Shown one piece after another: positions 10,824 to 26,840 of a stretch of 49,635 nt of DNA. Made by a program: the position numbers and the translations under genes. The stretch is from Patescibacteria group bacterium (GTDB lineage: Bacteria > Patescibacteriota > Patescibacteriia > UBA9934 > GWF2-40-263), in contig JAHJAM010000014.1 of NCBI GenBank assembly GCA_018814025.1, positions 1 to 49,635 of the forward strand. Direction: 5' to 3'. Under the pieces are notes generated by a model, which worked only from the letters and a program-made list of their open reading frames with translations, did not search any database and had not been told where the DNA came from. The stretch's first letter is position 1. The number at the start of each line of letters is the position of its first letter.

Positions 10824-13991
<3,168 letters not shown>

Positions 13992-14009
13992 ATCTGAATT
14001 AAGTTCATG

Positions 14010-14038
14010 AAAAGACGGGAGACATTCTTCCGTCTTTT
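14010..14038 (+). terminator. nrdJ terminator
   Basis: AAAAGACGG...CCGTCTTTT hairpin. Confidence 0.7.
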
Positions 14039-14059
14039 ATGTCAAAGAGTATTAGCCCC

Positions 14060-14095
14060 GACACGCCTAATAGACGGCCGTGCAATATATGTGTC
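14060..14095. repeat. 36-bp imperfect palindrome A1 (left flank of Cas2/PaaX-like gene 1)
   Basis: GACACGCCTAATAGACGGCCGTGCAATATATGTGTC; 27/36 identical to 14630-14665. Confidence 0.8.
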
Positions 14096-14631
14096 AAAAA
14101 AACAACATAAAACAAAGGCATTTGGCTAAGGGGTCAGTGGCCGCTTCATTACTGACTGATCTTGTTGATCAATTAGATCTCACGTTGACAGTGGGGTATA
14201 AGCCTGTTGCTGTAGCTCGGTATGGTCTCGACGGCGTTCTAAGGATGAGAAAGGCCAATGAATATAAACAAAGAAGACAAGCCCTTACCAGACTTCATCA
14301 AGGTAAGCTCATCAAAATAAGCAAAAATGCCGAAAATTATACAGTCGCTTTAACGGAATCTGGTCTAATCGAGAATTACCGACTTCAAGTACTCAATGCC
14401 GAAGAATTCGAGGATAACAGGTTTTGTATCGTGATCTTTGATGTCCCCGAAAGACACCGACGACTCCGAAGCCAGCTCAGATCTTTTTTAAAAGAAGCAG
14501 GTTTCCATCGTTTTCAACAAAGCGTCTGGATCTCACCATTTAATGCCACCAAACCGTTACTGGAGCTCTTCCGGGCATCTAATGCGAAAGGTTGGGTTAG
14601 AGTCTACACCGCCACCGAGGAGATCATCTGA
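14089..14631 (+). CDS. PaaX-like/Cas2-like protein (wHTH plus Cas2/VapD-type ferredoxin fold), copy 1
   Basis: LTESG wing motif, then IVIFDVPE..R..LR..L...GF..FQQSVW; AT-richer than neighbours; alternative start GTG 14080. Confidence 0.85.
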   Translation: MCQKNNIKQRHLAKGSVAASLLTDLVDQLDLTLTVGYKPVAVARYGLDGVLRMRKANEYKQRRQALTRLHQGKLIKISKNAENYTVALTESGLIENYRLQVLNAEEFEDNRFCIVIFDVPERHRRLRSQLRSFLKEAGFHRFQQSVWISPFNATKPLLELFRASNAKGWVRVYTATEEII

Positions 14632-14665
14632 CACAACTAATGAACGGTCGTCTAATATGTGTGAC
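14630..14665. repeat. 36-bp imperfect palindrome A2 (right flank of gene 1)
   Basis: GACACAACTAATGAACGGTCGTCTAATATGTGTGAC, overlapping the stop TGA. Confidence 0.8.
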
Positions 14666-14679
14666 ACTTTATTAAATGT

Positions 14680-15243
14680 ATGAAACCTCAAGCTGACGAA
14701 TCAATCAAAGGCCGCTCAGGCCATGGTCTAATCCAAATCTTCACCGGCGATGGCAAAGGCAAGACCACGGCCGCCTTGGGTGAAGCTCTTCGGGCTCATG
14801 GCGCGGGCCAAAAAGTCGGGATTGTCTTTTTTGATAAAGGCGGCGCGCATTACTCCGAGCGCGCCGCCTTAGATAAACTTGGCGTAGCGGTCGCGGCCTG
14901 CGGCCGCGACCGCCTTGATCCGTCCGGGCGTTTTGATTTCTCAATCACGGATGAAGATAAACAGGAAGGGGAGAAAGGCCTCGAATTTGCAAAACAAATG
15001 TTCGCTCAAGGCTTCGATTTGGTGATTCTGGACGAAATCAATTCATCCGTTGATTTAAAAATTGTCGCTCTCGGCCAAGTCCTGGCGCTCCTGGACCAAA
15101 AGCCGGATAACACCGAACTGATCCTGACCGGCCGCCACGCCCCCCAAGAATTCCTAGACCGCGCGCATCTGGTCACGGAAATGACCCTGCAAAAACACTA
15201 CTTCTATTCCGGCGTGAAAGCCCGAGCGGGATTAGATTATTGA
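14680..15243 (+). CDS. cobO: Cob(I)alamin adenosyltransferase (CobO/BtuR family)
   Basis: FTGDGKGKTTAALG, ILDEIN, LILTGR, KHY, GLDY. Confidence 0.92.
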   Translation: MKPQADESIKGRSGHGLIQIFTGDGKGKTTAALGEALRAHGAGQKVGIVFFDKGGAHYSERAALDKLGVAVAACGRDRLDPSGRFDFSITDEDKQEGEKGLEFAKQMFAQGFDLVILDEINSSVDLKIVALGQVLALLDQKPDNTELILTGRHAPQEFLDRAHLVTEMTLQKHYFYSGVKARAGLDY

Positions 15244-15278
15244 TTTTTTTCTCAATATTTCGTATCATCACCTCACAT

Positions 15279-15355
15279 CGGGCTGTAGCTCAGTAGGCTA
15301 GAGCGCTACGTTCGGGACGTAGAGGTCGCTGGTTCAAGTCCAGTCAGCCCGACCA
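15279..15355 (+). tRNA. tRNA-Pro(CGG)
   Basis: CGGGCTG acceptor stem, anticodon arm CTACG-TTCGGGA-CGTAG, GTTCAAGTC T-loop, encoded CCA. Confidence 0.97.
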
Positions 15356-15387
15356 AAAAAGCACGACTTTTAATGTCGTGCTTTTTT
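15356..15387 (+). terminator. Terminator after tRNA-Pro
   Basis: AAAAAGCACGAC-TTTTAAT-GTCGTGCTTTTTT. Confidence 0.75.
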
Positions 15388-15419
15388 ATTGATTCAATCT
15401 CTTGTACACTAATTCTATT

Positions 15420-15935
15420 ATGTTCGGGAACATTCTTCTTCTCATTGGCTTCATTCTCCTATTTTCTTTTGGCTACGCGGCCATTTCCGGCGCGCCCTGG
15501 GTGCCCACTTGGCGGCATGATACTGCTCGCGCGCTCAAGCTCCTGGATCTTCAGCCTGAAGAAAAGTTTTATGAATTAGGCAGCGGAATCGGCACGCTTT
15601 GCGTGGCCGCCGGTCATAACCCGCAAGTTCAAGTGATCGGCGTTGAATTATCTCTTGGCCAATGGTTAATCTCTCAAATCCGGAAAATGATTGGTCGGAC
15701 ATATAACATTCAATATCGCTTGGGAAACTTATTCCAGACAAATCTGTCTGACGCGGATGCAGTTTATTTTTTTCTCATGCCAGAGGTGTATGAGAAACTC
15801 CGTCCCAAACTGGAAAAAGAATTGCGTCCCGGCGCTAAAGTCGTTTCTTATGTCTGGCCCGTGCCCGGCTGGGAGCCGGTCAAGGTTGATAAGTCCGAAC
15901 GCTTTCCCAACCTCTATTTCTACATCATGAGATAA
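15420..15935 (+). CDS. Class I SAM-dependent methyltransferase with N-terminal membrane anchor
   Basis: GAPWVPT, YELGSGIG motif I, GVELS, LRPGAKVVS. Confidence 0.88.
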   Translation: MFGNILLLIGFILLFSFGYAAISGAPWVPTWRHDTARALKLLDLQPEEKFYELGSGIGTLCVAAGHNPQVQVIGVELSLGQWLISQIRKMIGRTYNIQYRLGNLFQTNLSDADAVYFFLMPEVYEKLRPKLEKELRPGAKVVSYVWPVPGWEPVKVDKSERFPNLYFYIMR

Positions 15936-15968
15936 AAAAGCCCCCGAGTTTCCTCGAGGGCTTTGAGT

Positions 15969-17027
15969 TTAGATGCACTCGTTCATGAGTGCGAAGATGG
16001 TCTGCGGGTCCGCCGCGATCAGGGAGCCGCGCTCGCGGAAGCGGTTGCGTCCGCCGTTGAGCAGAGTCCCGGTCGGTCCGGGAATGGCTCGTTGGCTATA
16101 GTGCCAGCAATCCGGTTCGCGTTCGCACAAGATCAAGGACAAGCGTTCCATCATGGTTCGCAAGTCCGTGCCGTGGCGCACCTGAATCACAGCCTGGGGC
16201 AGGCGGCCGCGCTGGTCATAGGCCACCAGCACCTGAACATCTCGGAACAACGAGAAGAACGCCCGGGTATCGAAGTTGTGGTTGACCATGAGGTAGCCGG
16301 CCCAAAGACCATGGATCCGGAAGATATTCTGATCCTGAGCCTGCAAGCGTTCGATCGTCTGCCCGAATTCGACATGGACTCGATCAAACAGCGCCTGCCA
16401 CTTCCGCAAACCCAAGTTGATTTCCTCTACCTTCTCCTCGCGCAGGAAGCGCATGCACGCGTAGCCGGACAAAGTCAGGGGCGAGGGATAGGCGTCGGCC
16501 AAGCTTGGCCAGTTCTTCACGAAGTTCTGGCGCTGAGGCCATTGCTTCAGCTGGCCGGGCCGGGCTTGGGTCAAGGTCTTCAGGTAAGGCGTCAGCCGCT
16601 GATTGTCATAGGCCCAGAAAGCCAACTCCGCCAGTTCACCCGCCTCGGCGATGATGAATCGCCGATAGTTGAGCTTGCCTTTGGTGTCAGCCGGCGTCAG
16701 ATCAAACAGGCGGGGGATCAGGCTGATGAAAGATTGCCGAAACGGCCGTCGGTTCAAGTAGCCGCTTTGATTGTCGTCGTTGAATACTCGGATCAAGTCC
16801 GCGAACTCGTCCGCGCAGTTGAGCTTCAGAGCCATTTGCTCGAACGCGGAACTGCCGCTTGGATAAGGCTCGCGCACGTCAATGTCCGGCACAGCCGGTC
16901 CCGGATCGCCATCCGTATCTCGAAAAAGGATTTCCGCGGTTTGCCCGGTTTTTAGCTGGTACAGATGCAAAGCGCAGATCTCTTCAAAACGGGGGCCGGG
17001 GTTCATCAAAATTTTCTGTCGGGTCAT
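15969..17027 (-). CDS. Hypothetical protein, possibly a degenerate DHH/MYG1-like fold
   Basis: Long ORF; GGGAGG SD upstream of ATG 17027; convergent terminator at 15934-15964. Confidence 0.65.
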   Translation of the reverse strand: MTRQKILMNPGPRFEEICALHLYQLKTGQTAEILFRDTDGDPGPAVPDIDVREPYPSGSSAFEQMALKLNCADEFADLIRVFNDDNQSGYLNRRPFRQSFISLIPRLFDLTPADTKGKLNYRRFIIAEAGELAELAFWAYDNQRLTPYLKTLTQARPGQLKQWPQRQNFVKNWPSLADAYPSPLTLSGYACMRFLREEKVEEINLGLRKWQALFDRVHVEFGQTIERLQAQDQNIFRIHGLWAGYLMVNHNFDTRAFFSLFRDVQVLVAYDQRGRLPQAVIQVRHGTDLRTMMERLSLILCEREPDCWHYSQRAIPGPTGTLLNGGRNRFRERGSLIAADPQTIFALMNECI

Positions 17028-17244
17028 CACGCCTCCCAGGGTTGATAAAGGACGACTTGTTTCCGAATTCAAGATTCGGCAAACAGCGTTTGATAATAAC
17101 ATCGAATCTGACTTTCGTCAATGGTCGGTTTCGATTCCGCGGCTCTTGACTTACCCACACTCGACCGATTAAACAGTTCTCTATATAATCGGTTATAGTT
17201 CTTTGGCGATCCGCCATTTTAGAAACTAACATCTTCATCACTCT

Positions 17245-17694
17245 ATGAAGATCAACGATCTACTTCATAATCTCGAACCAGATTCGGAGATGACCATCCT
17301 CAACGAGCCGTTTTCTTTTGCCGGTCAAATTGAAATCACGCTCGAAGGCGGCGAGGTCCTCCACTGGTTGTTTTCCAACGAGGGAGACATTTTAAGCGTG
17401 GCCCCGCACAACGAAGAATTATTTTTTTTCCAGCCCCTGGATGAAGAAATCGAGCCGCAAGGCGAGGTCTTTTTTTTCCGCAACAAAGAGTACGAACTCG
17501 ACTATGAGGGTGCCGGCACGGTCACGGCCGCTTCCGAAGACAGCGGCGTGGAAGAAGAAGACCAATATTCGTTTATGGATTATGAAGCTGACAATGGCGA
17601 ACTGATTCGCCAGCTTCATAATTTGAACACTGGCGAAGAACAGGGCTACCTGGGCAAGATTGTGGTCGAGGAAGATATTTTGAACATCGAGTAA
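17245..17694 (+). CDS. Highly acidic hypothetical protein
   Basis: 149-aa ORF, very rich in E/D; TATAAT upstream. Confidence 0.75.
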   Translation: MKINDLLHNLEPDSEMTILNEPFSFAGQIEITLEGGEVLHWLFSNEGDILSVAPHNEELFFFQPLDEEIEPQGEVFFFRNKEYELDYEGAGTVTAASEDSGVEEEDQYSFMDYEADNGELIRQLHNLNTGEEQGYLGKIVVEEDILNIE

Positions 17695-17699
17695 AAGGT

Positions 17700-17773
17700 G
17701 CTGGTAACTGGGTACTGGTAACTGGGTTTTAAAGACGCCTTGACCCAGTTACTAGTTACTAGGCCCTAGCCCC
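17700..17773. repeat. Short-unit repeat/palindrome (GTAACTG/CAGTTAC family)
   Basis: CTGGTAACTGGGT twice, then ACCCAGTTACTAGTTACTAG; related to 30550-30625. Confidence 0.6.
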
Positions 17774-17782
17774 TGATTCCCT

Positions 17783-18979
17783 ATGACCAAACTTCTTTTT
17801 GTAATTGCGGTCGGCGCCAGCACCATGGTGGTTTTGGCTTTGGCCGTCTATTTTGAACTCGGCCGATTTCAGCCGGCCAATGAAGTTCGCCGCATGCAGG
17901 CCGTCATGTCTCAACTCGAAACCGTCAAATACAAAGCTGGTTTGAGCCGGTCCTATGATCAAGCCGACCGCACTACCTCCGTTTTAGCTACCGGCCAGTT
18001 AAATTTTACTCACCCATATTCAATCGAGCACGGAACCAGTTTCCGGGTTGTTGATTTCAGCCGGTCCGGGGAGTCGAGCGATGTCGCGGGCGAGGTCATG
18101 GCCATTAATGAAGACACTTTTATCAAATTCGAACAGCCCGGCGCCGTCATCGATGGCCAGGCCGTGCCCGAAGCTGATACTTGGATTCGTTTTGATAATC
18201 CCTTCGGCTCATCCGTCAAACGCGCTTTTTTGCCCAGCGCCCGGGAAGACCGGCAAGTGATTCATGCTTGGTCGCCGGAATCTTTGCCGCGGCTGCGCGC
18301 CCTGGTGGCCCAGACCGATGTTCTGCAGGTCGCTTTTGACGGTGAAACCGAAATTGTGAATGGCGTGAACACGCGCGTACTAGACGCTCGGGTCGATCCC
18401 GATGCCGGGCGCGCCTTTCTTCTAGCCGTCGTGCGCACCCGCCAAGGGCGGGAGCCGAACACGGATGAGCGCTTGTTCGTGGAATCTTTGGCTCGGACTT
18501 TTGATCCCATGTATGTGCGCTTGTGGATCGGAATCAAAGATCATCGTCTGTATCGTTTGCAGGCCACTGGCGTCATCACTCAAGAACGCGATCGCCAGGC
18601 CGTGGATTTGAAAATTGAGTTGACTGATTTTAATGCCGCGTTCTTAGTTCAGGCGCCCGATCAATTCCAGGATTTTTCCAGTTTATCCGTTCAAGCCAAT
18701 GATTTGCCCGAGGCTTTAACTTTATCGCCCCAAACCTCAGGCTGGTTAACCGCGGCCACCGCCGACACCGGTCATCTGCCTTTGGCCGGCCGAACTTCTG
18801 CGATTCCGGCTTCGGATCCGGATCACGACGGCTTGGATAACATGCTCGAATTTTTTTACGGCACGGATCCCAATCATCCCGATACCGACCGCGACGGGGT
18901 TTCCGACGGCGATGAAGTGCTGGACGGCCGCAATCCCAGAGGCCAAGGCTCGCTTTTCGGTTTTGGCTTGGGCGGCTAA
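17783..18979 (+). CDS. Membrane-anchored surface protein with C-terminal DxDxDG Ca-binding (TSP3-like) repeats
   Basis: N-terminal TM helix; DPDHDGLDN..GTDP..PDTDRDGVSDGDEV..GRNP. Confidence 0.75.
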   Translation: MTKLLFVIAVGASTMVVLALAVYFELGRFQPANEVRRMQAVMSQLETVKYKAGLSRSYDQADRTTSVLATGQLNFTHPYSIEHGTSFRVVDFSRSGESSDVAGEVMAINEDTFIKFEQPGAVIDGQAVPEADTWIRFDNPFGSSVKRAFLPSAREDRQVIHAWSPESLPRLRALVAQTDVLQVAFDGETEIVNGVNTRVLDARVDPDAGRAFLLAVVRTRQGREPNTDERLFVESLARTFDPMYVRLWIGIKDHRLYRLQATGVITQERDRQAVDLKIELTDFNAAFLVQAPDQFQDFSSLSVQANDLPEALTLSPQTSGWLTAATADTGHLPLAGRTSAIPASDPDHDGLDNMLEFFYGTDPNHPDTDRDGVSDGDEVLDGRNPRGQGSLFGFGLGG

Positions 18980-18990
18980 TCATCATCCCC

Positions 18991-20751
18991 ATGACTGACA
19001 AAAAATCATCAAAACCCTGGCAGAAAACCAACCAAGGCCGCGATTGGCGAATTGAGGCTTTTCGGATGGTCGTGGTTTTGTTAGCTTTTGTGATTGTCCT
19101 GCGCTTGGTTTCCTTGCAAGTCTTGAGCCACGGTTTTTATCAGGCTCTGGCCAATGGCCAGCATGAAATTTTCCAAGAGCTTTATCCGGAGCGCGGCGAC
19201 ATATACTTTCATGATCTCAAAGACGGCACGCTAGTGCCCGTGGCCACTAATCAGCAATTGGCGTTTGTTTACGCTGATCCGCGCCACATCACCGATGCCG
19301 AAGGCGCGGCCAAAACTCTGGGAGAAATTTTTGCTTATGAAGCAGAAGCCGTTGAGGCTTTGCAAAAGCGGCTGGATCAGCCCGAAGATCCTTATGAGCC
19401 CATTGCTCATCGCGTCGGCGACCAGCAGCTGGATCAAATTATCCAAGCCCAATTGCCCGGCATCTATTTTGCTCGCGAACAAGCGCGCCTGTATCCGGAA
19501 GCCAAAGTCGGCGGGCACGTGATCGGTTTTTTGGGTATGAACAAGGACGGTTCCTTAGCCGGCAAATATGGCGTTGAAGGTTATTTCAATCAGGAACTGG
19601 CCGGCCAAGCCGGGTATTTGCGCAGCGAGCGCGATATTGCCGGGCGCTTGATTGCCGTGGCGGATCGTTCCATCGAAAGAGCGGTGGATGGGGCTGATAT
19701 CGTGCTCACGCTGGATCGCACCATTCAATACACCGTTTGTTCGGCTTTGGATCAGGCCGTGGCTCGTTATCAGGCCGACGGCGGCAGCGCGATCGTGATT
19801 GATCCTCACACCGGTCGAGTCCTGGCTATGTGCGGCGCCCCGGATTTTGATCCCAATAATTATGGCGCCGTGGACAGTATTAACGATTTTAATAATCCGG
19901 CAATTTTTGAAGATTATGAGCCCGGATCAATCTTTAAAGCCATCACTTTGGCCGCGGCCTTGGATACGGGCGCGGTCACTCCGACCTCAACCTATCTCGA
20001 CACCGGCGAAGTGAAGATCGACGAACACACCATTAAAAATTCCGACGAATTGGCGCATGGCCGGCAAACCATGACCCAAGTTTTAGAACTTTCCCTGAAC
20101 ACCGGCGCCATTTACGCCATGCGCGAAACCGGCATCCCGGTTTTTCTCGATTATGTGAAGCGCTTCGGCTTTGGCGAACCCGTGGGGATTAATTTGGATA
20201 CTGAAGTGGCCGGCGACTTGGGCGAATTGGAAACCGGTTATGAAATTTATTCCGCCACCGCTTCCTACGGCCAGGGGATCACCGTGACGCCTTTGCAAAT
20301 GGCCGCCGCCTATGTCCCCATTGCCAACGGCGGCATTTACAAGAAAATCCATATCGTGGACGAACTGCGTTATCCCGACGGCCGGGTGGTCAAAATTGAA
20401 GACCAGGATTTGCGCCGAGTGATCGAATCCAAGACCTCGCGCTTGTTGGGCGCCATGTTAATTTCCGTGGTCGACAACGGCCACGCGGCCAAAGCCGCCG
20501 TGTCCGGCTATTACTTGGCCGGCAAAACCGGTACGGCCCAAGTCGCCAATCGCTCCACCGGCGGCTATCAAGAAAACAACACCATCGCTTCATTCGTGGG
20601 CTTCGGGCCGGTTGAGGACCCGCGCTTTGTCATTTTGACTCGCCTGGATCACCCGCGCACTAACCCTTACGCGGCTCAAACCGCGGCCCCGCTCTTTGGC
20701 GAAATTGCCGCCTTCCTGCTACAGTATTTTGAAATACCGCCCACTCGATAG
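18991..20751 (+). CDS. ftsI: Class B penicillin-binding protein (FtsI-like transpeptidase)
   Basis: RGDIY dimerization domain, EPGSIFK (SxxK), SLN, KTGTAQ; directly upstream of murF. Confidence 0.85.
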   Translation: MTDKKSSKPWQKTNQGRDWRIEAFRMVVVLLAFVIVLRLVSLQVLSHGFYQALANGQHEIFQELYPERGDIYFHDLKDGTLVPVATNQQLAFVYADPRHITDAEGAAKTLGEIFAYEAEAVEALQKRLDQPEDPYEPIAHRVGDQQLDQIIQAQLPGIYFAREQARLYPEAKVGGHVIGFLGMNKDGSLAGKYGVEGYFNQELAGQAGYLRSERDIAGRLIAVADRSIERAVDGADIVLTLDRTIQYTVCSALDQAVARYQADGGSAIVIDPHTGRVLAMCGAPDFDPNNYGAVDSINDFNNPAIFEDYEPGSIFKAITLAAALDTGAVTPTSTYLDTGEVKIDEHTIKNSDELAHGRQTMTQVLELSLNTGAIYAMRETGIPVFLDYVKRFGFGEPVGINLDTEVAGDLGELETGYEIYSATASYGQGITVTPLQMAAAYVPIANGGIYKKIHIVDELRYPDGRVVKIEDQDLRRVIESKTSRLLGAMLISVVDNGHAAKAAVSGYYLAGKTGTAQVANRSTGGYQENNTIASFVGFGPVEDPRFVILTRLDHPRTNPYAAQTAAPLFGEIAAFLLQYFEIPPTR

Positions 20752-20789
20752 CTCCTCTAGCTCTCATATAGTCAGTTTAGCTCCTCTTT

Positions 20790-22094
20790 ATGAAACTCCT
20801 AATCCAAAAACTTCTCATTTGGCTCTCCAAGCGCATTATCCGCCGGCATCAGCCCATTATCGTAGCCGTCACCGGTTCCGTGGGTAAAACCTCCACCCGC
20901 AACGCTATCGCTGCGGTTTTGGAGTCGAGCTTCCGTTTGCGAACCAACTTTGCCAATTACAACAATGAATTTGGCGTTCCCTTGACGATCATTGGCGCGG
21001 TTTCGCCGGAAAAGTCATTGATCGGTTGGCTCAAGGTAATTTTTCATGGCGCCAAGCAAACTCTTTTCAAAGATCAGACTTATCCGCAGCTTTTAGTCCT
21101 GGAATTTGGCGCTGATCGGCCCGGCGATATTGGCGCTTTATGTGATATCGCCCAGCCGGATGTGGCCGTGCTCACCGTGGTTTCTCCGGTTCACGCGGCC
21201 AATTACGCATCCTTTGAACAATTAATCGATGAAAAAACCACCATTATTCGCCGAGTTAAGCCCGGCGGTCTGGCGGTTTTAAATGCTGATGATGCGCGTG
21301 TGCTTGATCATCGACTGGAGGCGCCGGCGCGCGTTCTGACCTACGGTTTCAGTCAAGCCGCGGATCTGCGTGGTTTCAATTATCATTTGGAAACTCGGCA
21401 GGATTTTACCTTTGATCCGGGCGAACAGTTTGCGGAAACTCACTTTGAAGTCGAATTTGAAGAAGAAACCATGCCTGCCAACCTGCCCAATCTCATTGGC
21501 CGGGCTCAAGTCAGCGCCGCTTTGGGCGCTTTGGCCGTGGGCCGCCATTTTGATTTGTCTTTGGAAGACATGATTCCGCGCTTGGCCAAAATTTTGCCCC
21601 AAGCCGGGCGCATGAACCCGCTGCCCGGCATCAAGAAATGTTTAGTGCTCGATGACACGTATAATGCCGCGCCCGCGTCCGTGCGAGCCGCATTGGAGGT
21701 TTTGGGTCAGTTCACGCCTCAAGGCGATGGCCAGCGGATTGCCGCCTTGGGCCAGATGGCCGAGCTGGGCCGCTACAGCCGCGATGAACATCGTTTGATT
21801 GGCCACCAGGTCGCGGAAATCGGCGTCTCATTATTGGTCACGGTGGGGGAGGAAGCTCTGGGTATTCGCGCAGGCGCCATCGAAGCCGGTTTAACCGATG
21901 GCCAGTGCGCTCATTTTGATAACTCGGAAGAAGCCGGCCGTCATTTAGATAAAGAAGTCCGCACCGGCGACATTGTCTTGGTTAAGGGCTCCCAATCCGC
22001 GCGCATGGAAAAAGTGGTCAAAGATTTAATGGCCGAGCCATTGCGTGCCGAACAGCTCCTCGTCCGGCAATCCGAAAAGTGGCTGAAGACATAG
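20790..22094 (+). CDS. murF: UDP-N-acetylmuramoyl-tripeptide--D-Ala-D-Ala ligase
   Basis: VTGSVGKTST, NNEFGVP, DDTYNA, MAELG, VKGS. Confidence 0.93.
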   Translation: MKLLIQKLLIWLSKRIIRRHQPIIVAVTGSVGKTSTRNAIAAVLESSFRLRTNFANYNNEFGVPLTIIGAVSPEKSLIGWLKVIFHGAKQTLFKDQTYPQLLVLEFGADRPGDIGALCDIAQPDVAVLTVVSPVHAANYASFEQLIDEKTTIIRRVKPGGLAVLNADDARVLDHRLEAPARVLTYGFSQAADLRGFNYHLETRQDFTFDPGEQFAETHFEVEFEEETMPANLPNLIGRAQVSAALGALAVGRHFDLSLEDMIPRLAKILPQAGRMNPLPGIKKCLVLDDTYNAAPASVRAALEVLGQFTPQGDGQRIAALGQMAELGRYSRDEHRLIGHQVAEIGVSLLVTVGEEALGIRAGAIEAGLTDGQCAHFDNSEEAGRHLDKEVRTGDIVLVKGSQSARMEKVVKDLMAEPLRAEQLLVRQSEKWLKT

Positions 22095-22112
22095 TTTTCC
22101 ACAAAACACTCA

Positions 22113-22188
22113 TTGACAAACACCAAAAATTCTGATGTAATTACCAAACAATAAGACAACTCCACCCATTACAAACGGGTGGAGTTTT
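22113..22188 (+). promoter_or_regulatory. Promoter followed by a terminator-like hairpin upstream of Cas2/PaaX-like gene 2
   Basis: TTGACA-17-TGTAAT, then AACTCCACCC-ATTACAAAC-GGGTGGAGTTTT. Confidence 0.55.
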
Positions 22189-22237
22189 GTATCTCCAAAG
22201 CAATAGCACTAAAGCAATAACACCAAATGTTTATCAA

Positions 22238-22269
22238 ACGGCATTCTTTACGATCGTAAAGAATGCCGT
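22238..22269. repeat. Perfect 32-bp palindrome B1 (left flank of gene 2)
   Basis: ACGGCATTCTTTACGA|TCGTAAAGAATGCCGT; contains ATG 22263. Confidence 0.92.
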
Positions 22270-22823
22270 CAGATCATATGAAGAGATTATTGGAAAAAAT
22301 AAAACGAGTTGCAAGAGTATCTGAAAGTGTGGCCTCTGATTTGTTGGTGGAGTTAGATTATTACCTTGATGGAATCGGAAAGATGAAATCCGTTATTTTC
22401 GCATGTAATCCTCAAGGGCTTGAGATGTTCAATGAAATAAAGGCAGTACAGGAACGGAGAAGGATCAGGGAGGCTGTACGTCTATTAGAGCAAAAGAAAC
22501 TGATCAAGATAAAAAAGAAAGCGAAAAGAATTGAACTTTCCTTAACAAAAAAGGGGAAATTAGAATCTGTCCGACATCAAATTATTTCAGAAGATCGACA
22601 GCTACCCAAAGACGAAGTGTGTATTGTGGTCTTTGATATTCCAGAACATGTCCGCAAGATTCGCGATGAGCTACGTTGGTTTCTAAAAAGTGCGGGTTTC
22701 GTACAATTACAGCGCAGCGTATGGATTACCACTGCCGATACGATAAGACCACTAAATATTCTATTGAAAGAGATGAAAGTTAACAATTGGATTTATATTT
22801 TCCAGGGTAGATCAGTAATTTGA
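22263..22823 (+). CDS. PaaX-like/Cas2-like protein, copy 2
   Basis: LTKKG wing motif, IVVFDIPE..RKIRDELR..L...GFVQLQRSVW; AT-rich. Confidence 0.85.
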   Translation: MPSDHMKRLLEKIKRVARVSESVASDLLVELDYYLDGIGKMKSVIFACNPQGLEMFNEIKAVQERRRIREAVRLLEQKKLIKIKKKAKRIELSLTKKGKLESVRHQIISEDRQLPKDEVCIVVFDIPEHVRKIRDELRWFLKSAGFVQLQRSVWITTADTIRPLNILLKEMKVNNWIYIFQGRSVI

Positions 22824-22826
22824 GCA

Positions 22827-22860
22827 TACGGTAAACTTCACGATCGTAAAGTTTACCGTA
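22827..22860. repeat. 34-bp palindrome B2 with one mismatch (right flank of gene 2)
   Basis: TACGGTAAACTTCACGA|TCGTAAAGTTTACCGTA, 3 nt after the stop codon. Confidence 0.92.
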
Positions 22861-26309: not shown

Positions 26310-26840
26310 ATGTCCAACGAACCCGGGATCGAAGGTGAATTCTTCGGTCAAAATATTAAGTCCGGTCAAATCGAGAGTATCTACCACGTGGACGAATCAG
26401 AAATTCAGGGAACCTTCTTTCCAGTTGTGCGTTTCATCATCCTTGCACTGATGCTCTTTGCCGGCAGCTTCTACGGCGCCCTGCGTTTGACTATATATAT
26501 TTTGAGGGCAGAGCCCGGCAGCCAGATCGTCTCCTTGGCCGATCCTATCGCCCTTCAGGCTTTGGTGAAGAGTGATCAAGCCGGCGACGGATCACCGGCC
26601 GGCGCTTATCTTCTGCATCTGTCACTTCAACGAAAAGCTGGCGGGGCTGATCAACCCATGATCATCGCTTATCACAGCATCGTTGAAACCACCTTGATCA
26701 AAGATAACCATGGTCAGTGCTATCTGATGTTCTATGATCTGGCGTTCAAGGGCTATACTCTGGAAGAGCAGACGGATGACCCCGGCCTGCACAGTGATGT
26801 TTACGGCCTGGTCAAAGTGCCATGTTCAGGAGGAAAATAA
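26310..26840 (+). CDS. Hypothetical single-pass membrane protein
   Basis: GAGGTG SD, one TM helix, TTGACA upstream. Confidence 0.7.
   Translation: MSNEPGIEGEFFGQNIKSGQIESIYHVDESEIQGTFFPVVRFIILALMLFAGSFYGALRLTIYILRAEPGSQIVSLADPIALQALVKSDQAGDGSPAGAYLLHLSLQRKAGGADQPMIIAYHSIVETTLIKDNHGQCYLMFYDLAFKGYTLEEQTDDPGLHSDVYGLVKVPCSGGK

Follow-up and report, generated by a model that had tools for sequence, protein, structure and literature searches.

The repressor PaaX is built from a winged helix, a motif for dimerisation and a domain at the C terminus; it is reported to bind a 39 bp operator of the form TGATTC-N27-GAATCA and to repress its own promoter by steric hindrance (PMC9493321). Here we describe two genes encoding small relatives of PaaX in a 49,635-nucleotide stretch of DNA (contig JAHJAM010000014.1 of assembly GCA_018814025.1, hereafter the window) from a Patescibacteria group bacterium, whose genome of 978 kb in 62 contigs is designated G000. 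Each gene lies between two related palindromes or quasi-palindromes, one at its start and one at its stop codon, and the gene together with its flanking sites is called a cassette. The layout of a gene between its own palindromes recurs phylum-wide and seems to be undescribed. We hypothesize, with somewhat more confidence than doubt, that each cassette encodes a minimal dimeric repressor of the PaaX type that occupies its own long operator twice, once at the gene's start and once at its stop; recognition by the cassette protein of its own palindromes, a step common to several readings, is very probable.

With PaaX of Escherichia coli (PDB 8a39, 3l09) the cassette proteins have in common a predicted winged-helix part followed by a Cas2-like middle domain (PF20803), and the palindromes, as putative operators, have at 32-36 bp the scale of the 39-bp inverted-repeat operator of PaaX (PMC9493321). 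In contrast to PaaX, which has 316 amino acids (aa), the cassette proteins have about 180 and lack the C-terminal effector domain; they keep an FDxPE..R..R..SVW signature that is missing in E. coli PaaX (the K-12 protein has no counterpart of FDxPE in an hhalign comparison, probability 66%); the putative operator is present at both ends of the gene, with no paa genes near the window cassettes; and up to 11 divergent copies occur in a 1-Mb genome. A second likeness is to Cas2 (TIGR01573, PF09827) and VapD, and consists of a ferredoxin-like fold, Foldseek matches, TIGR01573 scores above the cut-off and the alignment of both the conserved aspartate that ends strand 1 and a Q.SV(W/F) motif. Cas2, however, stands alone as a protein of about 90-110 aa, and its gene adjoins cas1 and a CRISPR array, whereas in the cassettes the domain is fused to a putative DNA-binding domain, the neighbouring genes are of the housekeeping kind and many genomes hold several copies.

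In the REPtron, a RAYT gene is flanked by its own REP palindromes, whose solo copies number tens to hundreds. The cassettes resemble it in that a gene lies between members of its own palindrome family, in that intergenic solo copies occur (those of families A and C, defined below) and in that several families of gene plus repeat coexist within one genome, but the proteins show no HUH/Y1 transposase fold or motif (Pfam and NCBIfam return only PaaX_M and Cas2) and the solo copies amount to at most about five per family. The looping repressors of the lac, gal and deo systems likewise have two operator copies some hundred bp apart, one of them at the promoter; in the cassettes, in contrast, the second site lies exactly at the 3' end of the regulator gene, a position conserved phylum-wide. 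Insertion sequences, transposons and integron cassettes differ from the present arrangement, in which no transposase or integrase adjoins, near-identical copies are absent and the ends are not fixed in orientation.

Conservation of the cassette layout

The search for homologues covered 41 genomes, G000 among them, from the family and order to which it belongs; 23 of these contained homologues (1-9 per genome), and 82 distinct genes were obtained. Genes were called as open reading frames (ORFs) and their starts estimated via profile alignments, and a locus was counted as bracketed when the best ungapped match between a start window (-90 to +60) and a stop window (-30 to +110) scored at least 13. 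Related direct flanks on the left and right were found in 53 of the 82 loci. In an independent phylum-wide sample of 301 genomes the family occurs in 74, with up to 11 copies each, and 22 of the 28 new loci obtained there carry the bracket, so that the pooled count is 75 of 110 as direct repeats and 78 of 110 in either orientation. The control value is 7 of 596 among the ORFs of at least 200 aa in G000, a background drawn from one genome; at least three of these seven positives are canonical terminator hairpins at both ends of the ORF. The related genomes are not mutually independent. The cassettes of the window genome itself are borderline at this threshold (scores of 13, 11 and 10 for copies 2, 3 and 1, respectively), and the bracket count is therefore conservative. 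An earlier account of the window, made from its letters alone (the sequence-only reading), had counted a general lack of palindromes around homologues against its proposal, and these figures show no such lack.

The family is large and divergent. An exhaustive homologue search returned 1719 clusters (50% identity) at E <=1e-3 and 410 at E <=1e-10, mostly of 160-210 aa. A word-indexed search gave only two proteins because the family is too divergent for it, and a related-locus search of genome contigs gave only 8 loci. The literature searched contains no description of this layout, nor of PaaX together with either Patescibacteria or Cas2, subscription journals (including the paper on 8a39) lying outside that search.

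The flanks are private to each cassette, with cores that include CGATCG, CGGCCG, CGGTCG, CCATGG, CATATG, CGTACG and CACGTG. When the type of core 6-mer was placed on the protein tree (50 rows, those with a palindrome score below 9 or a protein length outside 150-215 aa being dropped), 17 changes were counted. With shuffled labels the number averaged 25.0 and did not fall below 22, and none of 300 shuffles gave 17 or fewer. Since relatives share core labels, this test shows joint inheritance of protein and site, and nothing stronger. It bears on the possibility that the palindromes serve another system (a recombinase of the host, for example, or else a nucleoid protein or restriction-related factor), in which case the gene would be cargo or bystander. 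Tyrosine recombinase core sites consist of arms around a 6-8 bp core, which the arms and core of the palindromes recall, and one palindrome family of G000, family B below, is found without an adjoining cognate family gene. However, a shared host factor would need one common site, whereas the sites are private to each cassette, follow the protein tree and are tied to one gene family in the bracketed loci across the phylum, and we consider service to another system highly improbable.

Predicted fold and conserved residues

The proteins of the window, paralogues 1 and 2, are 35% identical over 159 aa (E 4e-25). Both exceed the cut-off of Pfam PF20803 (PaaX_M, the central Cas2-like domain of the PaaX protein; 59.3 and 55.0 bits, respectively, cut-off 24) and that of NCBIfam TIGR01573 (cas2; 33.9 and 27.3 bits, cut-off 24.5), and the description of two Cas2-like paralogues of about 180 aa in the sequence-only reading is thereby confirmed. 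Against the full-length PaaX model TIGR02277, in contrast, they reach 16.6 and 20.1 bits (cut-off 264.55), and no match to the PaaX N-terminal domain was returned for the window proteins by the Pfam search. In the same chain the Cas2-like domain is preceded by an N-terminal part of about 105 aa, which has weak similarity to profiles of winged-helix repressors of the ArsR and AspA types (E 0.017-0.06), and the proteins (180-186 aa) end directly after the Cas2-like domain. Exactly three genes of the family are present in G000, the third (copy 3, G000:C53:34889-35434) lying on another contig and encoding a protein with 60% identity to copy 2.

An AlphaFold model based on 67 aligned family members (mean pLDDT 84.5, residues 1-45 below 70) presents, in this order, helices, a beta-hairpin wing, a further helix and a ferredoxin-like domain. 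This predicted fold is PaaX-like: among PDB entries, Foldseek ranks PaaX of E. coli W first (8a39, E 4.4e-4, 125 columns aligned), ahead of Cas2 chains, VapD chains and the PaaX-like Rv0674 (3kfw). Residues D120, P122, R129 and S147 are invariant in 67 of 67 sequences, in which the mean column identity is 26%, and align with the active-site region of solved Cas2 structures, FD.P..R..R..GF..Q.SV (E 2.5e-4).

We hypothesize that the product of each cassette acts as a minimal DNA binder of the PaaX type, reduced to a winged helix and a Cas2-like domain. The Cas2-like domains would pair two subunits and space the winged helices far apart, and the putative dimer would read a two-fold symmetric operator of 32-50 bp. 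Bound on or just upstream of the start, it would block RNA polymerase and thereby repress its own gene, while the copy at the stop codon could be an auxiliary looping partner, a roadblock that insulates the neighbour or the operator of the next gene, as may be the case for cassette 1 and cobO. The solo sites found elsewhere in the genome would then constitute a small regulon.

Palindrome families and solo sites in G000

The core CG[AG][TC]CG occurs 2128 times in G000, and in just 17 of these occurrences are at least 13 of 17 arm positions complementary. Three of the 17 flank the three family genes, and a fourth flank (14077) scores 11/17. The sites fall into three families. Family A, of the form ACG-N9-ACGATCGT-N9-CGT, is found on either side of cassette 2, on the right of copy 3 and at four solo positions; family B, of the form TTCACATATGATGCGATCGCATCATATGTGAA, comprises five sites, none with an adjoining family gene; and family C, GACAC..ACGGYCGT..GTGTC, comprises four solo sites scoring 12-13, its form being shared by both sites of cassette 1 (11/17 for the left one). 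Copy 3 has a perfect 34-bp palindrome 3 nt past its stop and a decayed copy ahead of its start.

Solo sites occupy about 13 places in G000 and are intergenic save one, and their neighbours are housekeeping genes, among them aminoacyl-tRNA synthetase genes, secA, mnmA, fpg, pyrG and a glycosyltransferase gene. Two are centred 11 nt upstream of start codons, those of a glycosyltransferase gene and of a small ORF, both of which may be targets of regulation. The one site inside a coding frame is a perfect family-A palindrome (G000:C2:32437-32468) in the frame of an RsmI-like methyltransferase (PF00590, residues 5-205 of 225). The family-B sites lie at G000:C8:18468, C53:61933, C37:738, C4:14284 and C25:9904, two of them centred 11 nt upstream of a start codon, and they look like the flanks of L034, which is the orthologue of copy 1 in the related genome G006.

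In G030, a single-contig genome with four family copies, a few solo palindromes similar to the flanks of two of its cassettes are likewise found, for example at 86082 and 745392. Recurring GC-rich palindromes such as GTAGGGGCGAACGGCCGTTCGCCCCTAC also occur in that genome (G030:C1:136220, 872300, 765603 and nearby), none adjoining a family gene.

Evidence bearing on the mechanism

The mismatches within the arms were examined for the bias that pairing in RNA would leave. At the right sites G-T mismatches outnumber C-A (11 versus 7), at the left sites the reverse holds (6 versus 11), and summed over both sides they are equal to within one (17 versus 18), without an excess of G-U-compatible pairs on the sense strand. 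In the seven family-A sites, 9 of 15 arm pairs are altered on both sides and none on one side only, with 95% of the cells paired. The lack of a G-U excess and the two-sided changes in family A indicate that the symmetry is a property of DNA. These data weigh on a reading at the level of RNA, according to which the palindromes are stem-loops at the 5' and 3' ends of the mRNA that are bound or cut by the Cas2-like domain, the left one masking the start codon and the right one terminating or stabilising the transcript, so that stability or translation would be autoregulated. Strong covariation of arm pairs is what such a module would produce, the right palindrome has the position expected of a terminator or of a 3' stabiliser, and the titles of the matched PDB entries name some Cas2 and VapD proteins as RNases. 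In cassettes 2 and 3 the left palindrome may be transcribed, since a conserved promoter-like element (TTGACA-N17-TGTAAT, followed by a hairpin) precedes it by about 100 nt. Nevertheless, besides the balance of mismatches and the absence of one-sided changes of G-U type in family A, 11 of 53 cassettes have an extended -10 motif (TGnTAnnnT) on the downstream side of the left centre, which would leave the left palindrome outside the transcript (for the right centre the figure is 2 of 53); the left and right copies occur in either orientation, a T-tract is missing after many right sites, and solo sites lie between convergent genes. We accord the RNA reading only a very slight probability. Ordinary terminators were likewise considered as an identity for the flanks and dismissed, as the sites are loopless, their AT-rich arms enclose a CG-rich centre, and each cassette has sites of its own.

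The repressor reading, in contrast, fits the predicted fold, the operator scale, the joint inheritance of protein and site, the symmetry at the level of DNA and the position of the left site. At several loci the latter lies, by eye, between -35-like and -10-like elements or just ahead of the TGnTAnnnT motif, and the greater frequency of this motif after the left centre than after the right points the same way. It would also fit the indifference to orientation: among the 78 of 110 loci that could be scored, 28 have direct and 13 inverted ends and 37 are too symmetric to tell, and the occurrence of both orientations suits a symmetric dimer. The centres of the left and right sites are 523-719 bp apart, and comparison of the left and right copies gave 127 one-sided differences, 22 compensated double changes and 22 uncompensated double changes.

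Several observations weigh against a simple autorepressor. For the + strand at the two left sites of the window, a simple scan returned neither a sigma-70-type promoter nor any useful terminator. An operator at the end of the gene is surplus to what an ordinary autorepressor needs, and yet it is on the right that good palindromes (score of at least 10) are more frequent (40 of 82, versus 24 of 82 on the left). In most loci the right site adjoins or overlaps the stop codon, which mostly lies 10-31 nt before the right centre, and the site often extends over the last codons. The gene that follows a cassette has the same direction in 29 of 53 cases, converges in 18 and is not called as an ORF in 6, and given the converging cases the right site is not in general the operator of a downstream promoter; likewise, three of the four solo family-C sites sit between convergent 3' ends. 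At some loci palindromy reaches 44-50 bp, and neither this extent nor the two-sided arm changes would be required by protein contacts alone. Quasi-palindromes can be corrected by template switching during replication, as described in E. coli, and such correction could be the source of some of the symmetry. Finally, the invariant Cas2-type residues hint at a role beyond the pairing of subunits. Four points are thus left unaccounted for by the repressor reading, namely the placement and quality of the stop-codon site, the 44-50 bp palindromy, the Cas2-type residues, and the fact that cassettes turn over at fixed slots and that some flank pairs are identical, to which we now turn.

Gain, loss and possible movement of cassettes

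Several slots that hold a cassette in relatives are empty in G000, where the flanking genes are adjacent with no palindrome between them, and this points to gain or loss of the whole unit. In different genomes, one slot may also hold cassettes that are not orthologous, as observed for L057 and L054 (35% identity) and for L047 and L060 (29% identity). Both of the latter lie downstream of tRNA-Arg(gcg), L047 at a distance of about 215 nt and L060 behind an intervening 159-aa ORF. Moreover, in L094, L031 and L058 the left copy equals the right one (100% over 34-38 nt), including non-palindromic parts, which suggests exchange between cassette ends. These findings favour a self-mobilising or self-excising cassette, in which the winged helix would steer an active Cas2-like nuclease or strand-transferase to the flanking palindromes and the unit of palindrome, gene and palindrome would be cut out, copied or inserted, with solo palindromes as scars or landing sites. 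The patchy spread among relatives and across the phylum, the invariance of Cas2 active-site-like residues that are missing from E. coli PaaX, and the presence of solo palindromes of the same family in intergenic 3' regions would be explained as well. In G038, L076 lies downstream of mnmA, the position of a solo site in G000, although we estimate that about 2 such coincidences among 13 sites would arise by chance.

On the other hand, the closest pair within a genome has 70.5% identity, and hence there is no sign of recent movement. Ends in both direct and inverted arrangement are ill-suited to one fixed chemistry of transposition or excision, the solo copies are few and no known recombinase motif is present; to our knowledge, Cas2 has no strand-transfer activity. 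The Logan contigs of run X1 contain no joint across either window cassette, although rare forms would not appear in such contigs. Likewise, no similarity beyond the palindromes was detected in the flanks of the closest paralogues (7 testable pairs, within the shuffle range), a comparison that carries little weight at 60-70% protein identity. Taken together, we regard a mobile cassette as unlikely, and the more specific proposal of a novel type of minimal DNA unit, mobile or self-excising, in which a winged-helix-guided and catalytically active Cas2-like nuclease acts on palindromes of 32-50 bp, as distinctly doubtful. If it were true, it would represent a free-living relative of Cas2 that uses palindromic repeats without Cas1, and would inform the origin of Cas2 and of CRISPR-type repeats.

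The sequence-only reading had proposed a one-gene module whose protein recognises its own flanking palindromes, either as a mobile cassette with hairpin ends or as a self-looping autoregulated regulator. The idea of such a module draws support from comparison, through the frequency of the bracket, the private flanks, the inherited core, the predicted PaaX-like fold and the 39-bp inverted-repeat operator reported for PaaX. Of the two options the autoregulated regulator is the better fitting, and the mobile cassette is so far unsupported. The same reading looked to empty sites, in particular at the junction of nrdJ and cobO. Slots of other cassettes are empty in G000, but the nrdJ-cobO slot is occupied in G006 too.

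The palindromes also affect assembly. In run X1 the Logan contigs are interrupted precisely at the perfect left palindrome of cassette 2 (window 22240-22267), where two of them overlap by 28 nt. A cassette that lies between two perfect palindromes may therefore end up on a short contig and be lost or under-represented in metagenome-binned genomes. In G000, contig C9 ends 15 nt past a solo family-A palindrome, and solo sites of C37 and C48 lie a few hundred nt from the contig ends.

Significance

The host bacteria have genomes of about 1 Mb with few recognisable regulators, and a family present in about a quarter of the sampled genomes of the phylum may be one of the main sets of sequence-specific DNA binders there. 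As the likely binding site is written on either side of each gene, the family amounts to a natural collection of protein-site pairs, which could be used to derive a recognition code, to predict regulons in unculturable organisms and to supply orthogonal repressor/operator parts. The retained Cas2 signature could reveal how a nuclease fold was turned into a regulator's pairing domain, or how the change ran in the opposite direction. Some room for a more unusual, mobile reading is left by the putative operator at the stop codon and by the cassette turnover seen at fixed slots.

Cassettes and neighbouring elements of the window

The coordinates of the features in the window are given in Table 1. 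The sequence-only reading had each gene sitting between paired palindromes, with the start ATG in the right arm of the left one and the stop codon overlapped or abutted by the right one. For cassette 2 the pair stands as described. For cassette 1 it is weaker than claimed: the left site is 70% self-complementary (20-nt arms) and the right site was not called as a palindrome by the repeat search, although left and right sites are 77% complementary across 35 nt and can also be aligned directly. The placement of the right palindromes at the stop was correct in both cassettes. ATG 14089 and ATG 22263 do lie inside the right arms of the respective left palindromes, but ATG 22278 matches the start of copy 3 in the alignment and is thus a likelier start of paralogue 2 than ATG 22263. 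A higher AT content than in the adjacent DNA was also claimed for both cassettes, and applies to cassette 1 (GC content 0.42-0.43, against 0.51-0.53 in the adjacent DNA), whereas the low GC content of cassette 2 (0.39-0.40) continues beyond the cassette to about 23750.

Table 1. Positions in the window of the two cassettes and of adjoining elements.
Feature	Position	Strand	Remarks
Cassette 1 left quasi-palindrome	14060-14095		GACAC..ACGGCCGT..GTGTC; right arm includes ATG 14089
Paralogue 1	14089-14631 (ORF also from 14080)	+	180 aa; predicted winged-helix part and Cas2-like PaaX_M domain
Cassette 1 right quasi-palindrome	14631-14666		Covers last base of stop TGA 14629-14631
cobO-type corrinoid adenosyltransferase	14680-15243	+	PF02572, 174.7 bits; possible target of cassette 1 right operator
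Promoter-like TTGACA-N17-TGTAAT	22113-22141	+	Read from sequence; upstream of cassette 2; shared with three other G000 loci
Terminator-like hairpin	22158-22186	+	AACTCCACCC..GGGTGGAGTT, then TTTGT; between promoter-like element and cassette 2 left palindrome
Cassette 2 left palindrome	22238-22269		Perfect, 32 bp; ACG-N9-ACGATCGT-N9-CGT
Paralogue 2	22278-22823 (alternative start ATG 22263)	+	181 aa counted from ATG 22278
Cassette 2 right palindrome	22827-22860		34 bp, 1 mismatch; begins 3 nt past stop

The two window cassettes adjoin nrdJ, cobO, recQ and the genes for a penicillin-binding protein and a Mur ligase. Between nrdJ, which encodes a B12-dependent ribonucleotide reductase, and cobO (window 10824-15243) there is only cassette 1, and the order nrdJ, cassette 1 gene, cobO is also found in G006, whose orthologue is 52% identical to paralogue 1. 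The centre of the right site of cassette 1 is 32 nt upstream of the cobO start, and a regulator encoded by this cassette may couple the supply of the cofactor to the reductase.

Neither window gene has an integrase, a transposase, cas1 or a CRISPR array beside it, and the description of the gene as solo therefore holds for its neighbourhood. At the level of the genome it needs qualification, as a cas1 gene exists elsewhere in G000 (the only one, C56:436-1203), with no standalone cas2 detected in the whole of G000 by a PF09827 search. In the region G000:C56:270-1203, cas1 (PF01867, 120 bits) directly adjoins a small array of 36-nt repeats at the contig start, the space between the two being too small for cas2. 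A link between the cassettes and CRISPR was considered and rejected, the repeat beside this cas1 being dissimilar by eye to the palindromes.

The promoter-like element upstream of cassette 2 was missed by a consensus promoter scan because its second hexamer has G at position 2. Together with a hairpin, AACTCCACC..GGTGGAGTTTTGT, it forms a conserved module that is found four times in G000: at G000:C25:25570-25770 and 26520-26720 (locus L159), in the window at 22113-22190, and at G000:C53:34740-34825. Both copies in C25 precede tRNA-like elements and bracket a 194-aa ORF, while the other two precede cassettes 2 and 3. Rfam matches in C25 are below the gathering scores (a mascRNA-like element at 37.2 bits and a weak match to the tRNA-like end of tmRNA); across the three cassette loci and C25, Rfam places no family on the palindromes and returns only these weak C25 matches and a tRNA upstream of cassette 3. 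The left flanks of cassettes 2 and 3 have the module in common with the C25 units. Insertion of these cassettes into a tRNA-like element was considered by comparison with the C25 units, but the right flanks match over a 17-nt T-arm-like stretch only, too weak a basis for such a claim.

A second case of genes bracketed by repeats, unrelated to the cassettes, is present at G000:C10:2060-3100, where GC-rich hairpin repeats (CCCCCTCCTTGGTAAGGAGGGGG and GAGACGC) flank two small ORFs and also occur as four tandem copies with a period of about 52 nt.

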